Assembly (NCBI GenBank): GCA_963662285.2
Contig: CAXXMV010000008.1
Coordinates: 64,001 to 128,000 of the forward strand
Direction of reading: 5' to 3'
Source: a bacterium
GTDB taxonomy: Bacteria; Hinthialibacterota; Hinthialibacteria; Hinthialibacterales; Hinthialibacteraceae
Length of the DNA: 64,000 nucleotides
Shown here: positions 10,930-21,505 of the stretch, in pieces
How the letters are laid out: the number at the start of each line of letters is the position of its first letter
Position numbering within the stretch: the first letter of the stretch is position 1
Made by a program: the position numbers and the translations under genes
Notes under the pieces: model-generated
The model's input: the letters and a program-made list of their open reading frames with translations, nothing else
Databases searched by the model: none
What the model was told of the DNA's origin: nothing

Positions 10930-12270
10930 CTACAATTCCCACCCGGAACGGTAATGCGGCGTTAGATGAGCATTTGCTTTGGGGTTATTTTTGAACTGCA
11001 TCCCGGCTGCGTTCCACTCCAGTTTCTCTCCATCAAACACGGTAGCGATGACGCCCAGTAGAGCCATTTCGGTTAACGGGCCGCCGTATTCGAAAGTTGA
11101 ACTGGCAGGTTTGCCGTCTTTGCAGGCGCGAATCCAATCGTTGTGGTGTCCGTTTTTGATCCTTGGAATAATCTCGGCAGGTCTTTTATATTCATCACTG
11201 CGGGATTTAGGAAGAATCATGGCGCCGCCTCCGCCATGCGAGCCATGTAGGATCGTACCTTTTTCACCGATCAAAATGGCGCCCGCTTTGGCATTCCATT
11301 CACTCAATTCGATTCCTTGCAATTGGGGAAGATCAACTTTTTTACCATAGGTCCAGGTTACTTTGACCGGCGCCATATTTTCCCGCGCCGCAAATTGGTA
11401 TTCAATATCTGAACAAAGCGGAAACCGTTCGGGCGAATAGTCGCCGCAGCCGTTTTTGGCGATGATCGATTGAGGCGCCTGCAATTTCAGCGCCCAGAAA
11501 GTTGGATCGAGAATATGGCATACCCAATCGCCTAATACTCCGGTTCCGAAGTCAGCCCAACTGCGCCAGATGCCAGGCAGATAGCAGGGATTATAGGGGC
11601 GGTACGGCGCAGGTCCTAACCATAAATCCCAATCCAGCGTATCGGGAATCTTGGGCGTTTCGGTGGGACGGGGCTTACCGTTGCCATAAGGACTGGTGTA
11701 CCAGGCATGAACCTCTTTGACCTGACCGATAGCGCCATCCCATATCCATTCGCATATCTTGCGGATATCACCATCTGAATGCCCCTGGTTGCCCAGTTGA
11801 GTCTGCACCTTGTTTTCCCGCGCCGCTTTCATCAAAGCGCGGACTTCGTAGATGGTATGCGCCAGTGGCTTTTCGACGTAGACATGCTTGCCACGTTTGA
11901 TGGCGTTCATGGCGGCTACAGTGTGAAAGTGATCCGGCGTACTTACTATTACCGCGTCGATGTCTTTCTGTTTGTCGAGCATTACGCGGAAATCGTGATA
12001 CTTATTGGCTCGTTCATACTTTTGCAGCGACTTCTGCGCTCTATCTTGATCCACGTCGCACAAGGCCACGATATTTTGGTGATCCATTTTACTGAGGTTA
12101 TGCCCGCCGCGTCCCGCAATGCCAATTGCGGCGATATTCAATTTGTCGCTTGGCGCAGCTGAGGCGCCCCGGCCCAGAATTTCCGGACCAACTATCATAA
12201 AAGCGGATGACGCCAGCGCAGTTCGTTTTACAAAATCACGCCGGGTTACTTGCTGTTTCGTTTTTAACAT
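10930..12270 (-). CDS. Tat-exported Gfo/Idh/MocA oxidoreductase
   Basis: TRRDFVK, Rossmann IGIAGRG, TPDH.H, VEKPLAH and WDLWLGPAP motifs. Confidence 0.92.
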   Translation of the reverse strand: MLKTKQQVTRRDFVKRTALASSAFMIVGPEILGRGASAAPSDKLNIAAIGIAGRGGHNLSKMDHQNIVALCDVDQDRAQKSLQKYERANKYHDFRVMLDKQKDIDAVIVSTPDHFHTVAAMNAIKRGKHVYVEKPLAHTIYEVRALMKAARENKVQTQLGNQGHSDGDIRKICEWIWDGAIGQVKEVHAWYTSPYGNGKPRPTETPKIPDTLDWDLWLGPAPYRPYNPCYLPGIWRSWADFGTGVLGDWVCHILDPTFWALKLQAPQSIIAKNGCGDYSPERFPLCSDIEYQFAARENMAPVKVTWTYGKKVDLPQLQGIELSEWNAKAGAILIGEKGTILHGSHGGGGAMILPKSRSDEYKRPAEIIPRIKNGHHNDWIRACKDGKPASSTFEYGGPLTEMALLGVIATVFDGEKLEWNAAGMQFKNNPKANAHLTPHYRSGWEL

Positions 12271-12296
12271 TTCATTGCTCCTATTATGATGTACTA

Positions 12297-13778
12297 TTAG
12301 AAATATTTCTTAATAATCCAATCGGGCTGCCATTTATCCGGCTTACGTTCATGTCCGGTCAGGTCTATCTCTTTTTTATCTGGATTAGCGACGCCGAGAG
12401 GCAAGTCATCGCCGGATTCCTTCTGCCATTTCTTAAGCAGATTCATCATCTTTTCTACTTGCGCCGCATATTCGGGTTCATTGGCCAGGTTATACAATTC
12501 GTAAGGGTCATCTTTCAGATTGAATAACTGGGTATGGTTGATTCTAGGATAACGAATCAGTTTCCACTGATCGTCTCGGACTGCCCGTTGAATTTTGCAG
12601 TAAGAAGTAAAGACGGTATCGCGCACTTTTTTCTGCTTGCCTTGCCAAATTTGACTCAAATTCTTGCCATCAACATCACTTGGCGTATCAACTCCGGTCA
12701 TGGAGCATAAAGTCGGGAAGATATCCAGCAGATAAGAGAAAGCCTGAGTCGAGCCGCCTTTGGGGATGCCAGGGCCGGAAAATATCAGCGGACATCCCAT
12801 GCTGTGTTCATAGACATTCTGCTTGCCTAGAAGACCGTGGCTGCCGACCGCCAGACCATGATCGGCGGCGTAGACGATGATGGTGTTATCAGCCTGACCA
12901 GTGCGTTTCAGAGCGTCGAGTACGCGCCCGATCTGCACGTCCAAATGAGTAATCAGTCCGTAATACTCGGCCAACTGGTCGCGGATCATCTCTTCGGTGC
13001 GCGGCCAGGCGCCCAGGTTTTCGTCGCGCAATACCATCTGACCATTATCGAATGGATGCTGAGGCTTAAAATTAAAGGGCAGCGGGGGACGTTTTTTGTA
13101 ATACATCTCACGGTAATCCGTGGGTGGGTTGCGTGGATCATGGGGAGCGGTAAAAGCAACATAGGCGTAGAAAGGTTTTTCATTATCATGATTCTCGATA
13201 AACTCGATGGCCGAGTTGGCGAAGATTTCGCTGGAATAGCCATCGCCCGTGCGTTTGTTCACCACTTTTCCATCAGGAGAAAGGTCTACTACCGGAACTC
13301 TGGGATGATCCGACATCCCGCCGAACATGATAGTCTTACCTTTTTGGAAACCGCGCTTAAACGATTCCTGCTGATTATGCCATTTCCCGGTTCCAAAGGT
13401 GGTATACCCGTTCTCTTGGAAAATCTCCGGCATTATTCTGGTATCAGATAAATCATGCTTAATATTGAAATAGATTTTACCGCTGTTAATCATGGCCCGG
13501 CTGGGGATGCAAACCGCACCGCTATTTGAACCGAAGCAATAATTTCTGCGGAAACAGAATCCATTTTCAACCAGGCCATCAATATTGGGAGTATGAATAT
13601 AAGGATTGCCAAAAGCGCCGATTGAATCAGGCCGCTGATCATCCGCTAACAGAAAGAGAACATTCGGTCTCTTCTGTGATTTTGTCCTGGCAAAAGCCTG
13701 GCCGGGCAAGGCGGCGGCGCCAGCGCCCAGCGCGCATGTCTGTAGAAACCCCCGTCTTGAAACATTGTTTCGATTCAT
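12297..13778 (-). CDS. Tat-exported Cys-type sulfatase
   Basis: SRRGFL, PNVLFLLADD, CIPSRA, GKWH, DHG and GKQN motifs. Confidence 0.93.
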   Translation of the reverse strand: MNRNNVSRRGFLQTCALGAGAAALPGQAFARTKSQKRPNVLFLLADDQRPDSIGAFGNPYIHTPNIDGLVENGFCFRRNYCFGSNSGAVCIPSRAMINSGKIYFNIKHDLSDTRIMPEIFQENGYTTFGTGKWHNQQESFKRGFQKGKTIMFGGMSDHPRVPVVDLSPDGKVVNKRTGDGYSSEIFANSAIEFIENHDNEKPFYAYVAFTAPHDPRNPPTDYREMYYKKRPPLPFNFKPQHPFDNGQMVLRDENLGAWPRTEEMIRDQLAEYYGLITHLDVQIGRVLDALKRTGQADNTIIVYAADHGLAVGSHGLLGKQNVYEHSMGCPLIFSGPGIPKGGSTQAFSYLLDIFPTLCSMTGVDTPSDVDGKNLSQIWQGKQKKVRDTVFTSYCKIQRAVRDDQWKLIRYPRINHTQLFNLKDDPYELYNLANEPEYAAQVEKMMNLLKKWQKESGDDLPLGVANPDKKEIDLTGHERKPDKWQPDWIIKKYF

Positions 13779-14747: not shown

Positions 14748-15113
14748 ATGAAATCAATAATCGAACATCCGGATTGGGAAGTCATGGCGTCCGTGCTGCG
14801 TTCCATCAGCCATCCCATTCGCCTCATGATTTTGAACGAATTGGCGCAAGGCGCGAAATGCGTGCGCGACGTGCAAGAACTATTTGATATTTCTCAGCCA
14901 AATCTCTCGCAGCATTTGAACGCCTTAAAGAACGCCGGTTTAATCGGAAATCACTCGGACGGTTCTTTGAGGTGTTATTACCTGATCCGGCCCACGTTGG
15001 TTAAGACACTGTTGGAAGAATTTTCTAAACCCCATCCTGTTGAATTGAGGCCTAAAGAGACCGTTGTAAAGGAAGTACAGCAGAACCAAAAGAAAAAAGT
15101 TCTTTCCGCTTAA
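14748..15113 (+). CDS. ArsR/SmtB family transcriptional regulator
   Basis: SHPIRLMIL, KCVRD, SQPNLSQHL..LKNAGLI and RCYYL motifs. Confidence 0.92.
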   Translation: MKSIIEHPDWEVMASVLRSISHPIRLMILNELAQGAKCVRDVQELFDISQPNLSQHLNALKNAGLIGNHSDGSLRCYYLIRPTLVKTLLEEFSKPHPVELRPKETVVKEVQQNQKKKVLSA

Positions 15114-15141: not shown

Positions 15142-16062
15142 ATGAAACGCCGAACCATACTCAGCGTCGTAGGCGCCCTATTGCTTGGATCCAGAAAAGC
15201 CAAGGCGAACAAAGAAAAGAATGACTGTGAAAAAATCGATGAATACGGTTGCCTGGTGGATACAACTCTCTGCATCGGTTGTCGGGAATGCGAGAAAGCA
15301 TGCAATCTTTCGAATGAACTGACTCCTCAAACGACGGAGTTTTCAGATACCTCTGTTTTTGAAGCGCAGCGCAGACCAGACGCCAACCATTTTACAGTGG
15401 TCAACCGCCATTCCGGTTCACCGTCACCTTCACAGGGAAAACTCGCGGAGACCTTTATCAAGGTGCAATGCATGCATTGTCAGGAACCCGCCTGCGTGTC
15501 TGCTTGCATAGTCGGCGCATTACAAAAAACGTCACAAGGATCGGTGATATACGATGCGGACCGATGCATTGGGTGCCGTTATTGCATGGTAGCCTGTCCC
15601 TTTCAGATACCAGCCTACGAATATGACGATCCGATTGCTCCTCGCGTACGGAAATGCAATTTCTGTTTCGAGAGAGTTCAAGAAGGAGGAAAGCCCGCAT
15701 GTGTGGAAGCCTGTCCGAGAGAGGCGATTATCTTTGGCAAGCGCAGCGATTTGATCGCTCTTGCCAAAAAAAAGATTCGAGCCAAACCGGGTCGATATCT
15801 CGAACACATTTATGGAGAAAAAGAGGTAGGCGGGACATCGTGGTTATATCTGACCGGTCGTCCACCGGAAAAACTGGGGATGCCGGTATTTGATGAAAAA
15901 GCGCCCCCTCAATTAACCGAAAGCATCCAGCATGGAATATTCAAATACGGTTTGCCTCCGGTGGCTCTGTATGGATTTTTGGGAGGGATCATGTGGTTTA
16001 CCAATCGAAAGAATCACGCCGCGAACGAAGACGGCAACGCCCCATCGGAGGGACAAGAATGA
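15142..16062 (+). CDS. HybA/HmcB/PsrB-like 4x[4Fe-4S] ferredoxin subunit, Tat signal, C-terminal membrane anchor
   Basis: KRRTIL. Four Cys groups (CIGCRECEKAC, CMHCQEPACVSAC, CIGCRYCMVAC, CNFC..PACVEAC). IYGEKEVGGTSWLYL as in HybA. Confidence 0.92.
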   Translation: MKRRTILSVVGALLLGSRKAKANKEKNDCEKIDEYGCLVDTTLCIGCRECEKACNLSNELTPQTTEFSDTSVFEAQRRPDANHFTVVNRHSGSPSPSQGKLAETFIKVQCMHCQEPACVSACIVGALQKTSQGSVIYDADRCIGCRYCMVACPFQIPAYEYDDPIAPRVRKCNFCFERVQEGGKPACVEACPREAIIFGKRSDLIALAKKKIRAKPGRYLEHIYGEKEVGGTSWLYLTGRPPEKLGMPVFDEKAPPQLTESIQHGIFKYGLPPVALYGFLGGIMWFTNRKNHAANEDGNAPSEGQE

Positions 16063-19000
16063 ACGATGCATCTCTGCACGCACCTTTGAAACGCCCATTT
16101 TTCACTCCCGGAGTGTTAGTATTAATCACACTCATGACCATAGGAGCATGCTTCGCAGCAGCACGATTCTTCTTTGGATTAGGAGCGATAACCAACTTGG
16201 ATAACCAACATCCCTGGGGCATTTGGATCGCGATCGACGTAGCATCCGGCGTTGCGCTAGCGGCGGGAGGCTTCACGACAGCGGCTTTGGTCTACGTATT
16301 CAACCACAAGCACTTTCATCAGATCGTCCGTCCCGCTCTCTTGACAGCTTTTTTAGGTTATCTCTTCGTATCGATCGGTTTGATGGCAGACCTGGGAAAG
16401 TATTACAACATTTGGCATCCCATGGTTTTCTGGCAAGGCAACTCAGTGCTGTTTGAAGTTGGCATTTGCGTAATGACCTATTTAACCGTCTTATCGATTG
16501 AATTCTTACCGACTGTGTTGGAAAGTGTTCGCCATCACATTAATCAGGGAAGTGCTTTGAAGCCATTTTTAGAATCGATGAAAAAGCCCGCCGACGTTCT
16601 ACATCAGAAATTGGAAAAAGTAATGCCTGCTTTTATACTGGCGGGTGTAGTACTATCATGCATGCATCAGTCGTCCCTTGGCGCCCTAATGTTAATCGCG
16701 CCGTCCAAACTCAATCCATTATGGTTTACACCCATCCTTCCTCTTCTATTTTTAACATCAGCGGTGATGGTGGGATTTCCCATGGTAATTTTCGAATCCC
16801 TTATTGCATCTCGTTCATTTCGCCGTAAACCTGAAATGGATGTTCTTTCTCCCCTCGCCCGTTTCATTCCATATTTATTGGGGATCTATTTGATTTTGAA
16901 AATGGGCGATCTGCTCATTCGTCAACCATGGTCATCCTTGCGTCTCGATACGGATAGCGTATCTTTTATTGTTGAGATCGTTATAGGCGTCGCAGTTCCC
17001 CTGATTCTATTAGTCATTTCCAAAACATACAAATCAACCACAGGACTCTTCGTTGCGTCGTCATTGATTTTATTCGGCGTGGTTCTCAATCGCATCAACG
17101 TCTTTCTTGTGGGCTACAATCCCCCTTATGCGGAAAAATCGTATTTCCCTTCAATAGGTGAAATCGTAATTACGGCTGGATTGATTTCAGCTATTCTCTT
17201 CTTTTACCGGTTATTCGTTACCTTGTTCCCCGTACTTCCAGCGAATCAACCTTCCAGCGCAGGTTCAAATAAAACGGATCCTTCGAAAAAACAGCGAGCG
17301 GGCGTCTTCTCATCAAATACAAAAAGCATAGCACTTTCCACATTCTTGCTAGCTCTTCTTCACTCCCTCCCGCTCTCTGTTTTTTCCGATTCCATAGAAA
17401 AAATAGATTCCATGCCCTCGCTATTGATCCTTGACCATTCATCAAACGAATGGAATGAAGATAGTTATGGAACCGTTCGGTTCATGCATAAAAAACACGC
17501 AGTTCTGGAGAGCGGAGACTGTACGGTTTGCCATCACCGTGCGCCGGTATCAGTAAATGACTACGTTGGACAATCCATCTCTCGCAACGATCTCTCCCAC
17601 ATCGAACCAGTCGCGTGCCGAACTTGTCATTCATCTCCCGCTCAACCAGACGCGATCTTACGCCCCGGACTAAAAGGCGCATTGCATCAACGATGCATCG
17701 ACTGTCACGTCGAGAGAGATTCGGGACCGCAGACGTGTATGTCCTGTCACCGGCGCAACGTTCCCAACCACCAATCCCTTATTTCACTTACGGACGCAAC
17801 GAAGCCCCAAGAGATCACTGCTCAGTGCCTTTCGTGTCATCCGGCTGTCGGCGAATCGGTCTTGCATTCCGCTCATTGGAAATGGGCCGGACTTTCTCCC
17901 AATACGCACGGGCATGAACATCGAAACGATCTAGGGAAAAAACAGGTCATTAACAATTACTGCATTCACGTAGGTTCGAACCTGGAACGCTGCACGATGT
18001 GTCACATCGGGTACGGCTGGAAAGACGACTCGTTCGATTTCAGCGATGCGGGAAATATCGACTGCTTAATTTGTCACGATACGACAGGAATGTATAAAAA
18101 AGCGCCTCCCGGAGCCGGTTATCCCGTGGAAGGAATCGATTTGAACACTGTCGCCAAGAACGTCGGCCATCCCGATAGGGATAATTGCGGCGCATGCCAT
18201 TTTTACGGCGGGGGCGGCGACGGCGTCAAGCATGGCGACATGGATTCTTCGTTAAGCCATCCGTCACCCGAATTAGACGTTCACATGGGAAAACTAGGAT
18301 TTCTCTGTCAGGACTGTCATGTGACGGAAAGCCATCAGATCGCTGGCGCCTGCCAGGCAATACCGGCGCAGGAGGGTCGGGTTTCTTGCGAGAATTGCCA
18401 CACGTCTAAACCACACAATGGTTCGAATTGGTTAAATCAGCACTTAAACGATCATTCGGAATCGTTAGCCTGCCAAACCTGCCATATCCCCCAATTCGCC
18501 CGAGGAAATCCCACCAAGATGGAATGGGATTGGTCGCAAGCCGGACAGGATAGACCGGAAGAAAACGATTCGCTTGGGAAACCTGGTTTTGCGAAGATGA
18601 AAGGTTCTTTTATTTGGGGAAAAAACGTATCCCCTTCCTATATCTGGGATAACGGTAAAAACGAACGATACGTATTAGGTGATCGAATTGCGGAAAATAG
18701 TATTACGGTATTGAATCGGCCCCTTGGCGATATCAGTGATCCCAAGGCCAGGATCGCGCCTTTCAAGATTCACAAAGCCACGCAAATCAGCGACGCTGTT
18801 CACAAATACCTTATTGTTCCCAATCTATGGAAAGGCTATTGGAAACACTACGATTGGGATCAGGCGTCTAAAGACGGCATGAAAAGCGTTGGTTTGGAAT
18901 ACTCTGGCAAATATGAGTTCGTACAGACGTCTATGTACTGGAAAATCAACCACCAAGTTGCGCCGAAGGAAAAAGCCCTATCCTGCTATCAGTGTCACGA

Positions 19001-19229
19001 ATCGTCTTCAACCTGCTTTTCCTGCCATAATTCATTATCGAATGAGCGCAAAGAACAAATGCTCAAAGTAGACGACGAACTTCATCTGAACGCGCAACAG
19101 ATGATAGAATTTCCCTTTGAGAAGTTAGGCTACAAGGGCGATCCCATTCATTCCTGTTCCAGGTCCAAGAAATTTGAAAAAGAACCAATATCCTTGCAGT
19201 TACTTGATAAAAGCGGCTGGGAAGAATAA
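16059..19229 (+). CDS. fusion: NrfD/HybB membrane subunit + class III tetraheme cytochrome c + OTR-like octaheme cytochrome (13 CxxCH)
   Basis: ATGA overlap with the upstream gene. NrfD motifs PWGIWIAIDV, ALAAGGF, DLG, SVLFEV and MHQSSLG. c3 motifs F.HKKH, CTVCHH and LKGALHQRCIDCH. OTR motifs GK..INNYC, CHIGYG, CHFYGGGGDGVKHGD and CQTCHIP. Confidence 0.88.
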   Translation: MNDASLHAPLKRPFFTPGVLVLITLMTIGACFAAARFFFGLGAITNLDNQHPWGIWIAIDVASGVALAAGGFTTAALVYVFNHKHFHQIVRPALLTAFLGYLFVSIGLMADLGKYYNIWHPMVFWQGNSVLFEVGICVMTYLTVLSIEFLPTVLESVRHHINQGSALKPFLESMKKPADVLHQKLEKVMPAFILAGVVLSCMHQSSLGALMLIAPSKLNPLWFTPILPLLFLTSAVMVGFPMVIFESLIASRSFRRKPEMDVLSPLARFIPYLLGIYLILKMGDLLIRQPWSSLRLDTDSVSFIVEIVIGVAVPLILLVISKTYKSTTGLFVASSLILFGVVLNRINVFLVGYNPPYAEKSYFPSIGEIVITAGLISAILFFYRLFVTLFPVLPANQPSSAGSNKTDPSKKQRAGVFSSNTKSIALSTFLLALLHSLPLSVFSDSIEKIDSMPSLLILDHSSNEWNEDSYGTVRFMHKKHAVLESGDCTVCHHRAPVSVNDYVGQSISRNDLSHIEPVACRTCHSSPAQPDAILRPGLKGALHQRCIDCHVERDSGPQTCMSCHRRNVPNHQSLISLTDATKPQEITAQCLSCHPAVGESVLHSAHWKWAGLSPNTHGHEHRNDLGKKQVINNYCIHVGSNLERCTMCHIGYGWKDDSFDFSDAGNIDCLICHDTTGMYKKAPPGAGYPVEGIDLNTVAKNVGHPDRDNCGACHFYGGGGDGVKHGDMDSSLSHPSPELDVHMGKLGFLCQDCHVTESHQIAGACQAIPAQEGRVSCENCHTSKPHNGSNWLNQHLNDHSESLACQTCHIPQFARGNPTKMEWDWSQAGQDRPEENDSLGKPGFAKMKGSFIWGKNVSPSYIWDNGKNERYVLGDRIAENSITVLNRPLGDISDPKARIAPFKIHKATQISDAVHKYLIVPNLWKGYWKHYDWDQASKDGMKSVGLEYSGKYEFVQTSMYWKINHQVAPKEKALSCYQCHESSSTCFSCHNSLSNERKEQMLKVDDELHLNAQQMIEFPFEKLGYKGDPIHSCSRSKKFEKEPISLQLLDKSGWEE

Positions 19230-19245
19230 GAAAGGTTTATCAATC

Positions 19246-20409
19246 ATGAATCACATCGTCATTCTCGGAGGTGGATTTGCCGGAATCGAAGCCGCCATTC
19301 AATTAAGAAAAAAGAGTCAAAATGTAACGTTGATTTCAAATCGGGAATTTCTCTTCATTTATCCTCTTTCGATCTGGATTCCCGTGAAGCTTCAAAAATA
19401 TGAAAAAACCTGTCTATCTTTGCGTGATGTAGCGGCTAAATACCAGTTTAACTTTGTCATCGGGGACGTACAGAGTATCGACGCGAAAAATTCCAAGGTG
19501 ATGCTGAGAGATTCGGACTTATCATACGACTACTTAGTCATTGCTCTTGGGGGGAAAAAATACCCTATAAACGGCATCGAACACACCCATTCCATAGCCG
19601 ACGAACCTGAAAAAAGTCTCATTCTGCAACAAGGCATTGACCGATTGATTCAACAAGGACATGGACGAATAGCAGTCGGTTTCGGTGGAAATCCACATGA
19701 TTCGTCCGCTGTTCGCGGAGGTCCCGCTTTTGAATTGATATTCAATATTCATCGCTACTTAAAAAAGCGTAATCTACTCGATAAATTCGAGTTAACTTTC
19801 TTTGCTCCCATGCAGAATCCAGGTATTCGTTTGGGTGAAAAGGCATCGATAGAAGTCTTTCGTATGTTAAACCGCTTGAATATTACTTGCCACTTTGGGA
19901 ATAAGATCCATTCGTTCTCTGAAAAAACCATTCAATTCGACAATGGAAAGATATTGGAATTCGATCTCATCACCTTTATATCAGCACGCAACGGTCACCC
20001 GGTATTACAAAACTCGGATATACCGTTATCGGCTGCGGGATTTATAAAAATTGACGACCATTGCCAAGTTATTGGTTTTCCCCGCGTCTATGCAATCGGT
20101 GACACCGCCGATTTGCAGGGGCCGGATTGGAAAGCCAAGCAAGGTCACCTTGCCGAAGCCATGGCGAAAACAGCCGCCCATAATATTGTTGGTCAGATCA
20201 ATAACAACCCTAGAACGAAACAATATTTAGATGATATATCCATTATCTGTCTGATGGATATGGGAAATAGTGGGGCGCTGGTATATCGAAACCATCACCG
20301 CCAATGGCTGATTCCCCTGCCCATTATTGGCCACTGGTTTAAGCGTTTGTGGGGAAAATATTACGTTTACTCGAAATTAGGACGCATTCCCAGAATTCCA
20401 GGTTTATAA
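19246..20409 (+). CDS. sqr: sulfide:quinone oxidoreductase, type VI (SqrF)-like flavoprotein
   Basis: GGGFAG FAD motif, YP..IWIP, GFGGNP.DSSAVRGGPAFE, AIGD, GPDWKAKQGH, ICLMDMG and a C-terminal amphipathic helix. Confidence 0.8.
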   Translation: MNHIVILGGGFAGIEAAIQLRKKSQNVTLISNREFLFIYPLSIWIPVKLQKYEKTCLSLRDVAAKYQFNFVIGDVQSIDAKNSKVMLRDSDLSYDYLVIALGGKKYPINGIEHTHSIADEPEKSLILQQGIDRLIQQGHGRIAVGFGGNPHDSSAVRGGPAFELIFNIHRYLKKRNLLDKFELTFFAPMQNPGIRLGEKASIEVFRMLNRLNITCHFGNKIHSFSEKTIQFDNGKILEFDLITFISARNGHPVLQNSDIPLSAAGFIKIDDHCQVIGFPRVYAIGDTADLQGPDWKAKQGHLAEAMAKTAAHNIVGQINNNPRTKQYLDDISIICLMDMGNSGALVYRNHHRQWLIPLPIIGHWFKRLWGKYYVYSKLGRIPRIPGL

Positions 20410-20745: not shown

Positions 20746-21429
20746 ATGTATAAATCAATAATTATTGGATGTTTAGCATTAGTAGTTGTTGCGACAGGCG
20801 CATTTGCCGGAGATTTATTGCTTCGCGGCGAGGTCGATATTCCCAATCAAGTGCAGATTGAATTCAGCATTCCTCTGGACGTGCTTGACGCAATCAAAAC
20901 CTCCGGCTTGAGCGCTATGGTAGATGATAAGGGCAAACTCAACCAACTGGTTGATTCCTTAATCGGAGACCTCGCCTCAATGAAAGGCCACAACCTTCTA
21001 GAAATCAACATGGATGGACATGGCATTGCGATTGCAGTGGATGAAGTGGATAAGGATAATCCCGAAGAAGCCAATTTCATCCAATTGAACATTGATCCAA
21101 CAGGAGATAACGAGCCGGAAATCAACCTTTGCATCCCTAAAGGAATCCTCTTCCTGGGCGCATTCATCGGCAACCAATTCGTCGAGAAGCATGGTGAAGA
21201 ATTCATGGACATGATCAAGCAGCAGATGATGATGAATTGCAAACCTCCCGCCGCTCCACAAGGCGGCATGGGTGAATGCAAAGATAAAAAATGCCCCAAA
21301 GATAATGACGATGGCGATGATGACGAAGATGACGATGATGATGAAATTCAGGAAAAGATTAAGAAAGATGTAAATCCCGAAAAAATCATCAAAGAAATCC
21401 TGCGCGAAGTCTTAAAAGAACTCAATTAA
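20746..21429 (+). CDS. secreted hypothetical protein with Asp-rich tract
   Basis: SD AGGAG/GGAG, signal peptide ending AFA, and DNDDGDDDEDDDDDE. Confidence 0.75.
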   Translation: MYKSIIIGCLALVVVATGAFAGDLLLRGEVDIPNQVQIEFSIPLDVLDAIKTSGLSAMVDDKGKLNQLVDSLIGDLASMKGHNLLEINMDGHGIAIAVDEVDKDNPEEANFIQLNIDPTGDNEPEINLCIPKGILFLGAFIGNQFVEKHGEEFMDMIKQQMMMNCKPPAAPQGGMGECKDKKCPKDNDDGDDDEDDDDDEIQEKIKKDVNPEKIIKEILREVLKELN

Positions 21430-21457: not shown

Positions 21458-21505
21458 AATGAAGGATGAACCGGGTAACGCCTGGTTCATCCTTCATTTT
21501 GTTTT
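21458..21505 (+). terminator. intrinsic terminator between convergent genes
   Basis: Stem aatgaaggatgaaccggg / cctggttcatccttcatt followed by a T-rich tail. Confidence 0.8.

Follow-up and report, generated by a model that had tools for sequence, protein, structure and literature searches.

In the complexes MccACD (quinol:sulfite) and NrfABCD (quinol:nitrite) a NrfD-like quinol site, a four-cluster Fe-S protein and a multiheme relay serve a periplasmic multiheme catalyst, and in NhcABCD and HmcABC(DEF) of Desulfovibrio an Fe-S protein of the HmcB/NhcB type and a heme-free NrfD-like subunit of 10 helices are found together with a class III multiheme cytochrome. So they are described in the available part of the account of NrfD-like complexes by Calisto and Pereira (PMC8076601), in which the word 'fusion' occurs 0 times. 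Need the quinol site and the catalyst be separate polypeptides? The window considered here is the whole analysed stretch of 64,000 nucleotides of DNA from a bacterium of the Hinthialibacteraceae (phylum Hinthialibacterota; assembly GCA_963662285.2, contig CAXXMV010000008.1, positions 64,001 to 128,000 of the forward strand), and it contains a single gene in which a HybB-type membrane domain is followed by a cytochrome c3-like tetraheme module, an octaheme domain of the OTR family and a 13th heme. We read its product, with a probability of about 0.7, as a quinone-pool-linked periplasmic oxidoreductase whose membrane subunit and catalytic cytochrome are encoded in one frame.

Of the described systems, Nhc/Hmc come closest in membrane module and c3 domain, and MccACD/NrfABCD in how the parts work together. 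In Nhc and Hmc, however, the cytochrome is a separate, non-catalytic subunit that collects electrons, whereas the fused chain ends in an OTR head; the window operon has no HmcD, HmcE, HmcF or NhcD gene, and its scores with the HmcB, HmcC and HmcA models are below the cut-offs. MccD and NrfD, each a polypeptide of its own, have 8 helices, and MccA and NrfA belong to cytochrome families other than OTR. HybA and HybB of E. coli hydrogenase-2 share 37% and 32% identity over their full lengths with the corresponding window sequences, and seven HybB residues are kept, but the window operon lacks hydrogenase genes and the HybB score is below its cut-off. As to the catalytic head, the eight CxxCH motifs and the heme-ligating lysine of the OTR of Shewanella oneidensis (1SP3; TIGR04315) align with it, and the family hidden Markov model scores above cut-off. 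That OTR is a soluble, stand-alone periplasmic protein of ~450 amino acids, to which the fused protein adds, in one chain, an N-terminal tetraheme module, a C-terminal 13th heme and the HybB-type membrane domain. We know of no dedicated quinol dehydrogenase for the Shewanella protein. What is taken to be a split arrangement is found in a Thermosulfurimonas genome, where, according to the available part of PMC4911364, the Otr gene adjoins a gene for a multi-helix 'cytochrome b'. The initial annotation knew of no characterised protein with the fused architecture, and none was found in the open full-text literature, from which subscription journals are absent; the architecture is nonetheless common in sequence databases, under generic names.

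The fused gene

Homologues came from a length-restricted search of 5.8 billion proteins, which gave 934 matches; the best 120 were examined, and the 117 of these with at least 1000 amino acids are called full-length below. Twenty-six full-length homologues drawn from the 117 form the alignment A1. The gene is divided as follows.

16059 to 19229, plus strand: the fused gene, 1056 amino acids and a stop codon, without interruption
16059 to 17249, plus strand: NrfD/HybB-type 10-helix quinone-interacting membrane domain, residues 1-397 (PF03916 and HybB alignment)
17250 to 17324, plus strand: basic linker, residues 398-422, predicted to be cytoplasmic and to be the n-region of a signal peptide (charge count)
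17325 to 17390, plus strand: 11th hydrophobic helix, residues 423-444, putative h-region of an internal signal peptide (hydropathy)
17451 to 17783, plus strand: tetraheme cytochrome c3-like module, residues 465-575, CxxCH at 488, 520, 546 and 560 (NCBIfam and PDB matches)
17790 to 19007, plus strand: OTR-family octaheme domain, residues 578-983, CxxCH at 590, 645, 669, 710, 750, 777, 805 and 976 (TIGR04315)
17937 to 17939, plus strand: codon of K627, opposite the lysine at position 56 of the 1sp3 chain
19008 to 19229, plus strand: C-terminal extension with the 13th heme (CxxCH at 986) and conserved Y1025, D1028, P1029 and R1035 (conservation in A1)

The translation runs through without a stop, and the make-up that the initial annotation had given to the frame was borne out part by part: a NrfD domain, a polar linker, an extra hydrophobic helix, then four CxxCH in a c3 pattern, eight in the OTR pattern and one more, exactly 13 in all. 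Between the ATG at 16059 and the stop of the gene before it there is an overlap of 4 nucleotides, and GGAGGG precedes the ATG, though a longer form starting at a GTG at 15993 is possible.

Ten hydrophobic helices precede residue 397 in the hydropathy profile. NrfD-like subunits are heme-free membrane proteins made of two four-helix bundles, with 8 helices in all or, in the HybB/NhcC/QrcD type, 10. Pfam NrfD (PF03916) matches residues 46-353 with 82 bits (cut-off 25.8), and over residues 9-395 the NCBIfam HybB equivalog model (NF008133) gives 358.2 bits, below its cut-off of 450, with 304.1 bits for HmcC, also below its cut-off (550). As residues 7-391 of E. coli HybB align to the domain (32% identity, E 2e-62), the fusion starts at the natural HybB end. 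R91, Y101, D111, S129, E148, H203 and R345 correspond to HybB R89, Y99, D109, S129, E148, H184 and R329, the correspondences being read off the printed alignment; in A1 six of the seven are invariant, the seventh, D111, being conserved to at least 90%. In the available part of PMC8076601, HybB Ser129 is the conserved serine of the quinone pocket, Asp109 a protonatable residue of helix 2 and Arg329 a mid-membrane arginine, and replacement of Arg89, Tyr99, Glu148 or His184 impaired H2 oxidation. The features expected of a NrfD-like protein are thus found, namely the pocket serine (S129), the acid of helix 2 (D111), the arginine of helix 8 (R345) and an adjoining gene, at 15142-16062, for a Tat-exported four-cluster Fe-S partner, and the quinone module looks functional. 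That the protein might be HybB proper, a hydrogenase subunit, was considered and rejected on the sub-cut-off HybB score and on an operon without hydrogenase genes; the sole match to [NiFe] hydrogenase (PF00374) in the organism's own genome is on a different contig, C2. The label 'Ni/Fe-hydrogenase cytochrome b subunit' that homologues carry at NCBI is misleading, and it affects metabolic reconstructions from metagenomes.

The first four hemes belong to a module (residues 465-566) matched by the NCBIfam models TmcA (E 1.4e-12) and HmcA C-terminal (E 3.8e-12) and by residues 440-555 of the 16-heme HmcA, PDB 1z1n (E 5.9e-11), with further matches to 1duw, 1h29, 1gws and 3cao; its nearest counterpart is the tetraheme domain at the C-terminus of HmcA/NhcA, and the nine-heme cytochrome is likewise similar. 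The full HmcA model gives only 45.6 bits (cut-off 400). The next eight hemes lie in a domain that scores 539.9 bits with TIGR04315 (cut-off 375, residues 578-983), and residues 581-983 align with residues 13-418 of the Shewanella OTR chain (PDB 1sp3) at E 5e-136 with 8/8 motifs in register. K627, whose correspondence to 1SP3 was likewise read off the printed alignment, lies outside any CxxCK motif, in the active-site segment GK..INNYC that had been pointed out at the outset. The equivalent lysine ligates the active-site heme of Shewanella OTR, and NrfA also uses a lysine-ligated active-site heme, as stated in the available part of PMC12285233. Beyond the point where the 1sp3 match stops there follows the C-terminal extension, of which C986, C989, H990, Y1025, D1028, P1029 and R1035 are invariant in A1. 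By all the sequence criteria tested, the window protein is a member of both the OTR and the NrfD-like families.

Is such a chain a peculiarity of one genome? The 117 full-length homologues among the best 120 of 934 matches are 1037-1123 amino acids long and 47-76% identical to it, and all of the 120 have the NrfD and cytochrome Pfam domains. A separate scan with the HybB part, over one genome per prokaryotic species, gave 588 relatives, of which 80 loci were kept; 28 of the 80 have a complete fused reading frame and 4 further fused frames end at a contig edge. Carriers are found in Desulfobacterales, Desulfosarcinaceae, Desulfarculaceae, Acidobacteriota (Thermoanaerobaculia, Holophagales) and Myxococcota, one carrier being the cultured Desulfocarbo indianensis SCBM. 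Since the 117 share the architecture, and A1 shows no variation in K627 or in any of the 13 heme motifs, the fusion is real and under selection. The initial annotation's remark that these domains are usually separate proteins does not hold within this lineage of OTR. The motif GK..NN[YF]C occurs in 115 of the 117. Among the locus reading frames a pattern search did not find it in 6 of 29, an Acidobacteriota-type subclade (L021, L033, L048 and L075, from Acidobacteriota, Holophagales and Thermoanaerobaculia, with L056 and L057), four of which have 14 heme motifs; L014 also deviates at this motif. In that subclade the OTR head may have lost its active site or have an altered one.

The operon and the HybA-like partner

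The genes accompanying the fused gene are these.

14748 to 15113, plus strand: ArsR/SmtB-family regulator, 121 amino acids, first gene of the probable operon (Pfam HTH_5, 53.6 bits; 28 nucleotides before the next gene)
15142 to 16062, plus strand: HybA/HmcB-like periplasmic protein of the 4x[4Fe-4S] type, 306 amino acids, with twin-arginine (Tat) signal and C-terminal membrane tail (NCBIfam)
19246 to 20409, plus strand: pyridine-nucleotide-disulfide oxidoreductase, 387 amino acids, SQR/NDH-2-like, without signal peptide (PF07992, 80.6 bits)
20746 to 21429, plus strand: open reading frame of 227 amino acids, possibly the last gene of the unit (no family match)

The order of the unit is arsR, hybA, fusion, flavoprotein, with gaps of 28, -4 and 16 nucleotides, the flavoprotein's ATG at 19246 being 16 nucleotides past the stop of the fused gene. 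The 227-amino-acid frame has no Pfam or NCBIfam match, and 3' of it, at 21458-21498, there is a strong terminator-like hairpin of 19 base pairs; a promoter scan gave 14 sites versus 15.5 expected and is uninformative. For the regulator the NCBIfam model HTH_metalloreg gives 71.2 bits (cut-off 55), with weak matches to BigR (46.3, cut-off 155) and TsoR (34.5, cut-off 115); for the flavoprotein the best NCBIfam match is type III SQR, at 93 bits against a cut-off of 525. These two genes are shared only with the closest locus, L001 (80% identity). On the minus strand, at 10930-13778 of the window, are a sulfatase (493 amino acids) and a GFO/IDH/MocA oxidoreductase (446 amino acids); locus L002 also has a sulfatase beside its fusion. 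They are probably a background of the lineage, from a polysaccharide-degrading lifestyle, and outside the unit.

The HybA-like gene is the constant companion, a homologue being upstream in 78 of the 80 loci. Its product, which shares 37% identity with the whole of E. coli HybA (E 4e-64), scores 335.9 bits with HmcB (cut-off 420) and 262.7 bits with HybA (cut-off 263), and has an N-terminal KRR motif, 18 cysteines and a hydrophobic C-terminal stretch. A two-chain structure prediction of HybA with the c3 module scored 0.50 (runs 0.50, 0.54 and 0.50), the best of 3 controls scoring 0.00; of 157 solved complexes 116 reach the mark used, as do 2 of 215 mismatches, only 18 of the 157 and both mismatches doing so at or below 0.60. 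The runs share at least 88% of their contacts, the partner pLDDT is at least 71, and the prediction gives weak support to a HybA-c3 contact.

Proposed mechanism and substrate

In the reading preferred here the HybB-type domain would sit in the membrane with both ends cytoplasmic, and the basic linker and the 11th helix, a relic Sec signal peptide, would take the remaining chain across. The 13 hemes would then be attached in the periplasm, where they would form a c3-like tetraheme relay, the OTR octaheme domain with its lysine-ligated second heme, and one extra heme. Menaquinol would be oxidised at a site on the periplasmic side of the HybB domain and the four Fe-S clusters of the HybA-like protein, Tat-exported and held by a tail anchor, would relay its electrons to the c3 hemes and on to the OTR active site, a path parallel to NrfD-NrfC-NrfB-NrfA and MccD-MccC-MccA. 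Flow from menaquinol by way of HybA and c3 to the lysine-ligated heme is put forward by analogy. The initial annotation had proposed the same wiring of quinol site, Fe-S partner, c3 and OTR, and the HybA-like gene of 78 of 80 loci and the seven conserved HybB residues fit with it.

What would be reduced? The substrate is the least certain part of the proposal. Most probably it is an inorganic compound of sulfur, for instance tetrathionate, sulfite, thiosulfate or polysulfide, the alternative being nitrite or hydroxylamine. A sulfur oxyanion is favoured because of the neighbours, which include a PhsAB-like enzyme, rhodanese, a BigR-like ArsR and the SQR-like flavoprotein. In a family test of 54 neighbouring reading frames from 13 loci, 5 of the 5 Desulfobacterales-type loci tested had, after the fusion, genes for a monoheme cytochrome c, for a molybdoenzyme resembling PhsA (551-573 bits, cut-off 694) and for a TtrB-like Fe-S subunit, and no NrfD-type subunit belonging to the PhsA/TtrB-like genes was seen among the frames tested there; a periplasmic lipoprotein rhodanese was found in 2 of 2 such loci tested. 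A BigR-like ArsR gene is present in the window, L001 and L006, a rhodanese gene at L062 and a rhodanese/MBL gene at L065, and the organism's own genome has dsrAB. In sediment microcosms with tetrathionate, otr transcripts of a marine acidobacterium were up 36-fold (available part of PMC8528874).

Several points weigh against this reading. The acidobacterial otr just mentioned is not established as being of the fused type: neither of the published quantitative PCR primers for the Ca. Sulfomarinibacter otr (PMC8528874, the part available) has a match in 88 loci, and in a metagenome scan with the forward primer 23 loci were recovered, the reverse primer matching in none of them, with only two weak OTR-like matches (32-34% identity). 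In Shewanella sp. ANA-3 deletion of otr was without effect on tetrathionate respiration, and the authors suggest sulfite reduction; the best in-vitro activities of OTRs are with nitrite and hydroxylamine, and twenty years after the Shewanella structure the physiological substrate is still disputed (all from the available part of PMC12949373). The sulfur-related neighbours vary by lineage, and none was seen at L002 (60% identity). The HybB and HmcC equivalog scores are below cut-off, so that no direction or coupling can be transferred from hydrogenase-2 or Hmc, and the direction of electron flow is proposed from analogy and redox potentials only. The full-length AlphaFold2 model has a mean pLDDT of 63.1 and a pTM of 0.42, with the linker and much of the heme domains below 50, and as it gives no geometry for the heme chain it was used for helix positions only. 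Finally, in a second sequencing run of the same sample, X2, one contig of depth 3.44 has T7 instead of T6 at 17380-17385, with which the frame would stop at residue 459 and the cytochrome be left without an export signal.

Two observations on rhodaneses are given for their own sake. In L040 (13672-14799) and L047 (13823 onward), from metagenome-assembled genomes of Desulfobacteraceae/Desulfobacterales, the PhsAB-like genes are followed by a lipoprotein rhodanese gene whose frame continues past in-frame TGA codons, with conserved sequence beyond them; the L040 read-through product has 375 amino acids, with three rhodanese domains and, in a YCxGxTU motif, two predicted selenocysteines. The best NCBIfam matches are to TsoB, at 115 bits against a cut-off of 805, and to a rhodanese-related selenoprotein, at 75 bits against 115. 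The TsoR and TsoB families are listed among selenoproteins in the available part of a review (PMC13188914). A link to these NCBI 'Tso' families was considered and dropped, given scores of 34.5 versus 115 for TsoR and 115 versus 805 for TsoB.

The linker and the 11th helix

How would the hemes reach the periplasm? Because both termini of ActC and of ActF are on the N-side, and 10-helix members (HybB, NhcC, QrcD and others) have equivalents of the two extra ActC helices (PMC8076601, the part available), both ends of the HybB-type domain would be cytoplasmic, and with the chain in the cytoplasm after helix 10 one further crossing would be needed to export the heme domains. The predicted inside loops of the window protein have 20 lysines and arginines versus 3 in the outside loops. 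The linker, residues 398-422, has 5 lysines or arginines versus 1 acidic residue, AlphaFold places the 11th helix at residues 419-435, and the 25 residues past that helix have 7 acidic and 1 basic. Every one of the 117 full-length homologues has in its linker a hydrophobic 13-mer scoring at least 1.6, and in 104 the segment ahead of it is net positive. Free 13-heme c3-OTR relatives begin with ordinary signal peptides at the equivalent place. That the 11th helix is a relic or retained signal peptide, which would place the hemes in the periplasm, is well supported by these sequence comparisons. The initial annotation had it as a retained signal peptide; the periplasmic location of the hemes agrees with the charge pattern and with the free relatives, while 'retained' is now in doubt, as most relatives have a possible cleavage site.

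That last point leads to the strongest rival, which keeps the same electron path and is a variant of the best explanation and not another function. After export, signal peptidase I would cut the internal signal peptide and so release two proteins at 1:1, an 11-helix HybB-like membrane subunit and a 13-heme c3-OTR cytochrome of ~610 amino acids, free or bound peripherally, which would dock on HybA. We consider this quite possible, at a little under even odds. The linker shows the complete n-h-c layout of a Sec signal peptide, and a strict AxA after the hydrophobic core, which is a crude proxy for a signal-peptidase site, occurs in 68 of the 117 homologues, compared with 23.1 expected from shuffles and with 158 of 879 (18%) at control helices of the same proteins. 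In most homologues it ends 55-58 residues ahead of the first heme cysteine. Linkers of the Desulfobacterales type have PKKMS at the start and AxA at the end, like a full Sec signal, and the PKKMS looks like the relic start codon of a formerly separate gene, its methionine kept. In close relatives of the window protein an acidic or polar residue is preceded by AHA, AYA or SHA, and free c3-OTR proteins exist that work with a separate hybB. The window protein itself, however, has only V-F-S before D-S, a weaker site, and the AxA count divides by class: it is found in 67 of 103 short-linker proteins but in 1 of the 14 with a long linker, whose helix is longer and conserved, which suggests a permanent anchor at least there. 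If cleavage were usual, moreover, the benefit of repeated fusion would rest on stoichiometry alone.

There is a precedent for such a gene. The cytochrome b-c1 precursor FbcH of Bradyrhizobium is encoded by one gene in which an internal signal peptide connects a membrane redox subunit to a c-type cytochrome, and it is cleaved. The families are unrelated to those considered here, and cleavage, demonstrated for FbcH, is for the window protein a possibility drawn from its sequence. A more elaborate version, tentative and rather doubtful, has the cleaved 13-heme c3-OTR enzyme stay docked on a shared HybA/HybB quinol dehydrogenase, which in Desulfobacterales would also serve the anchorless PhsAB-like molybdoenzyme, the monoheme cytochrome c and the (seleno)rhodanese; tetrathionate would then pass by way of thiosulfate to sulfite and sulfide in a complete periplasmic chain that feeds Dsr.

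Direction, substrate class and the integrity of the frame

Could electrons run the other way? The complex would then oxidise thiosulfate, sulfide/polysulfide or hydroxylamine, or take electrons from a soluble cytochrome c3 or hydrogenase, and reduce menaquinone as hydrogenase-2, Qrc and Nhc do. The membrane and Fe-S subunits are most like HybB/HybA and HmcC/HmcB, which serve quinone reduction or inward flow (PMC8076601, in its available part), the c3 module resembles a domain of HmcA/NhcA, the HybB proton-path residues needed for coupled H2 oxidation are kept, and an SQR-like flavoprotein is co-encoded. The head, however, is a catalytic OTR with its lysine motif kept in 115 of the 117 homologues, and every OTR activity reported in the available part of PMC12949373 is a reduction. 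The adjacent genes include none for a hydrogenase or a formate dehydrogenase, the one [NiFe] hydrogenase match of the genome being on another contig, and at +198 mV (from the available part of PMC8528874) the tetrathionate/thiosulfate couple is far above menaquinone, so that passage from thiosulfate to quinone would be uphill. On balance reversed flow is unlikely.

With menaquinol as the donor, as we prefer, the complex might still be a quinol:nitrite or quinol:hydroxylamine reductase that replaces NrfA, in the nitrogen cycle or in detoxification. Purified OTR works best with nitrite and hydroxylamine in vitro (available part of PMC12949373), Otr has been proposed for a nitrite role in ammonifiers that lack NrfA (PMC5276818 and PMC6896113, each in its available part), and the architecture mirrors NrfABCD. 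Among the neighbours tested (54 reading frames from 13 loci, and the window genes), though, there was no nitrogen-cycle gene, the recurrent neighbours are sulfur-related, and the carriers are mostly sulfate or sulfite reducers. A nitrogen compound is an improbable choice as substrate.

That mis-assembly or a frameshift merged two genes, as the extra T of the X2 contig, ending the frame at residue 459, might suggest, is very improbable and at the level of the family ruled out, since 117 independent homologue clusters and 28 complete loci of several phyla read through the same junction in frame, the public contig X1, possibly the source assembly, has 0 differences from the window over 16900-17800, and the shifted version would strip the cytochrome of any export signal. 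A stop or start in the linker on reads across 17230-17420 had been named at the outset as what would overturn the fusion; X1 and an identical 183-nucleotide piece (17397-17579) from a third run, X3, of another study agree with an open frame, and X2 departs from it with its one frameshifting T, which we read as a homopolymer error. The T6 run at 17380-17385 falls within the region of the possible signal-peptidase site.

Split forms and origin

In L065 and L077 the unit is split into hybA, a hybB of 387-389 amino acids and a separate c3-OTR gene. The L065 c3-OTR gene product, of 692 amino acids, has 13 hemes and its own signal peptide, and its gene overlaps hybB at an ATGA, where loss of the hybB stop would yield the fusion. 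Other combinations are found as well: a dense 13-heme protein of ~380 amino acids paired with hybA-hybB in Ignavibacteria, Planctomycetota, Zixibacteria and Hydrogenedentota, HybB fused to this dense protein or to four hemes only, and HybA and HybB together in one frame of ~710-760 amino acids in L003 and L004 (Phycisphaeraceae), in L038 and in genomes G002, G003, G012, G015 and G018 of the window's own family. In L003 the HybA-HybB fusion is followed by a cytochrome of 1119 amino acids with 23 heme motifs. In L038 (8163-10291, from a 'delta proteobacterium' metagenome-assembled genome) the c3-OTR part behind the HybA-HybB fusion is split into at least 5 short open reading frames, and is a decayed copy or the result of poor assembly.

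The window organism's genome has a second locus of related kind, L082, on the minus strand of contig C8 (1460622-1464707), where a HybA-like gene (286 amino acids) is followed by a fusion of 617 amino acids with a NrfD domain at 34-324 and a class III cytochrome c at 453-545 but no OTR part; NrfD-cytochrome fusions thus recur in this genome. Its sole match to Cytochrom_C_asm, at C6:692464-693057 (L087), lies within an open frame of 1042 amino acids, and from that length we would guess at a fused ResB/CcsA-type (System II) cytochrome c synthase, a candidate for loading all 13 hemes.

Quick maximum-likelihood trees were built for the HybB part (54 rows) and for the cytochrome part (58 rows), and in both the fused proteins form two well-supported clades, A of the Desulfobacterales type and B with the window, Acidobacteriota, Myxococcota and others. 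The HybB tree has clade B with unfused HybBs (support 92), and the cytochrome tree has clade A with split and free 13-heme forms (support 99). Since the starred branches require at least 2 changes of state, these trees, quick as they are and with a very long E. coli outgroup branch, suggest fusion or fission more than once. The full fusion is patchy, being present in 2 of 19 other genomes searched of the window's family. Among OTR family representatives (1384 clusters at E 0.001 or better, of which the top 150 were inspected for architecture) only 4 of the 150 have the OTR domain placed as it is in the fused protein. Three domain types are confirmed in what had been called a triple fusion, yet, given the free and split forms, the gene is better seen as HybB joined to a pre-existing 13-heme c3-OTR cytochrome than as an assembly of three parts.

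Significance

An OTR covalently tied to a quinone-handling domain is direct genetic evidence that among sulfate and sulfite reducers, and in several other anaerobic phyla, the menaquinone pool has in this enzyme a terminal branch. The fused OTR comes with an Fe-S protein of the HybA type, and often with genes of the thiosulfate/polysulfide type. The fused protein may, besides, offer a clear-cut example of a respiratory enzyme with a signal peptide inside it. If its cleavage into two proteins and the sharing of the HybA/HybB module were both true, the long-open physiological role of the OTR family and its electron donor would be settled. What the fusion already does is to make the disputed role and the electron supply of OTR testable, as there is now a defined complex and at least one cultured carrier.

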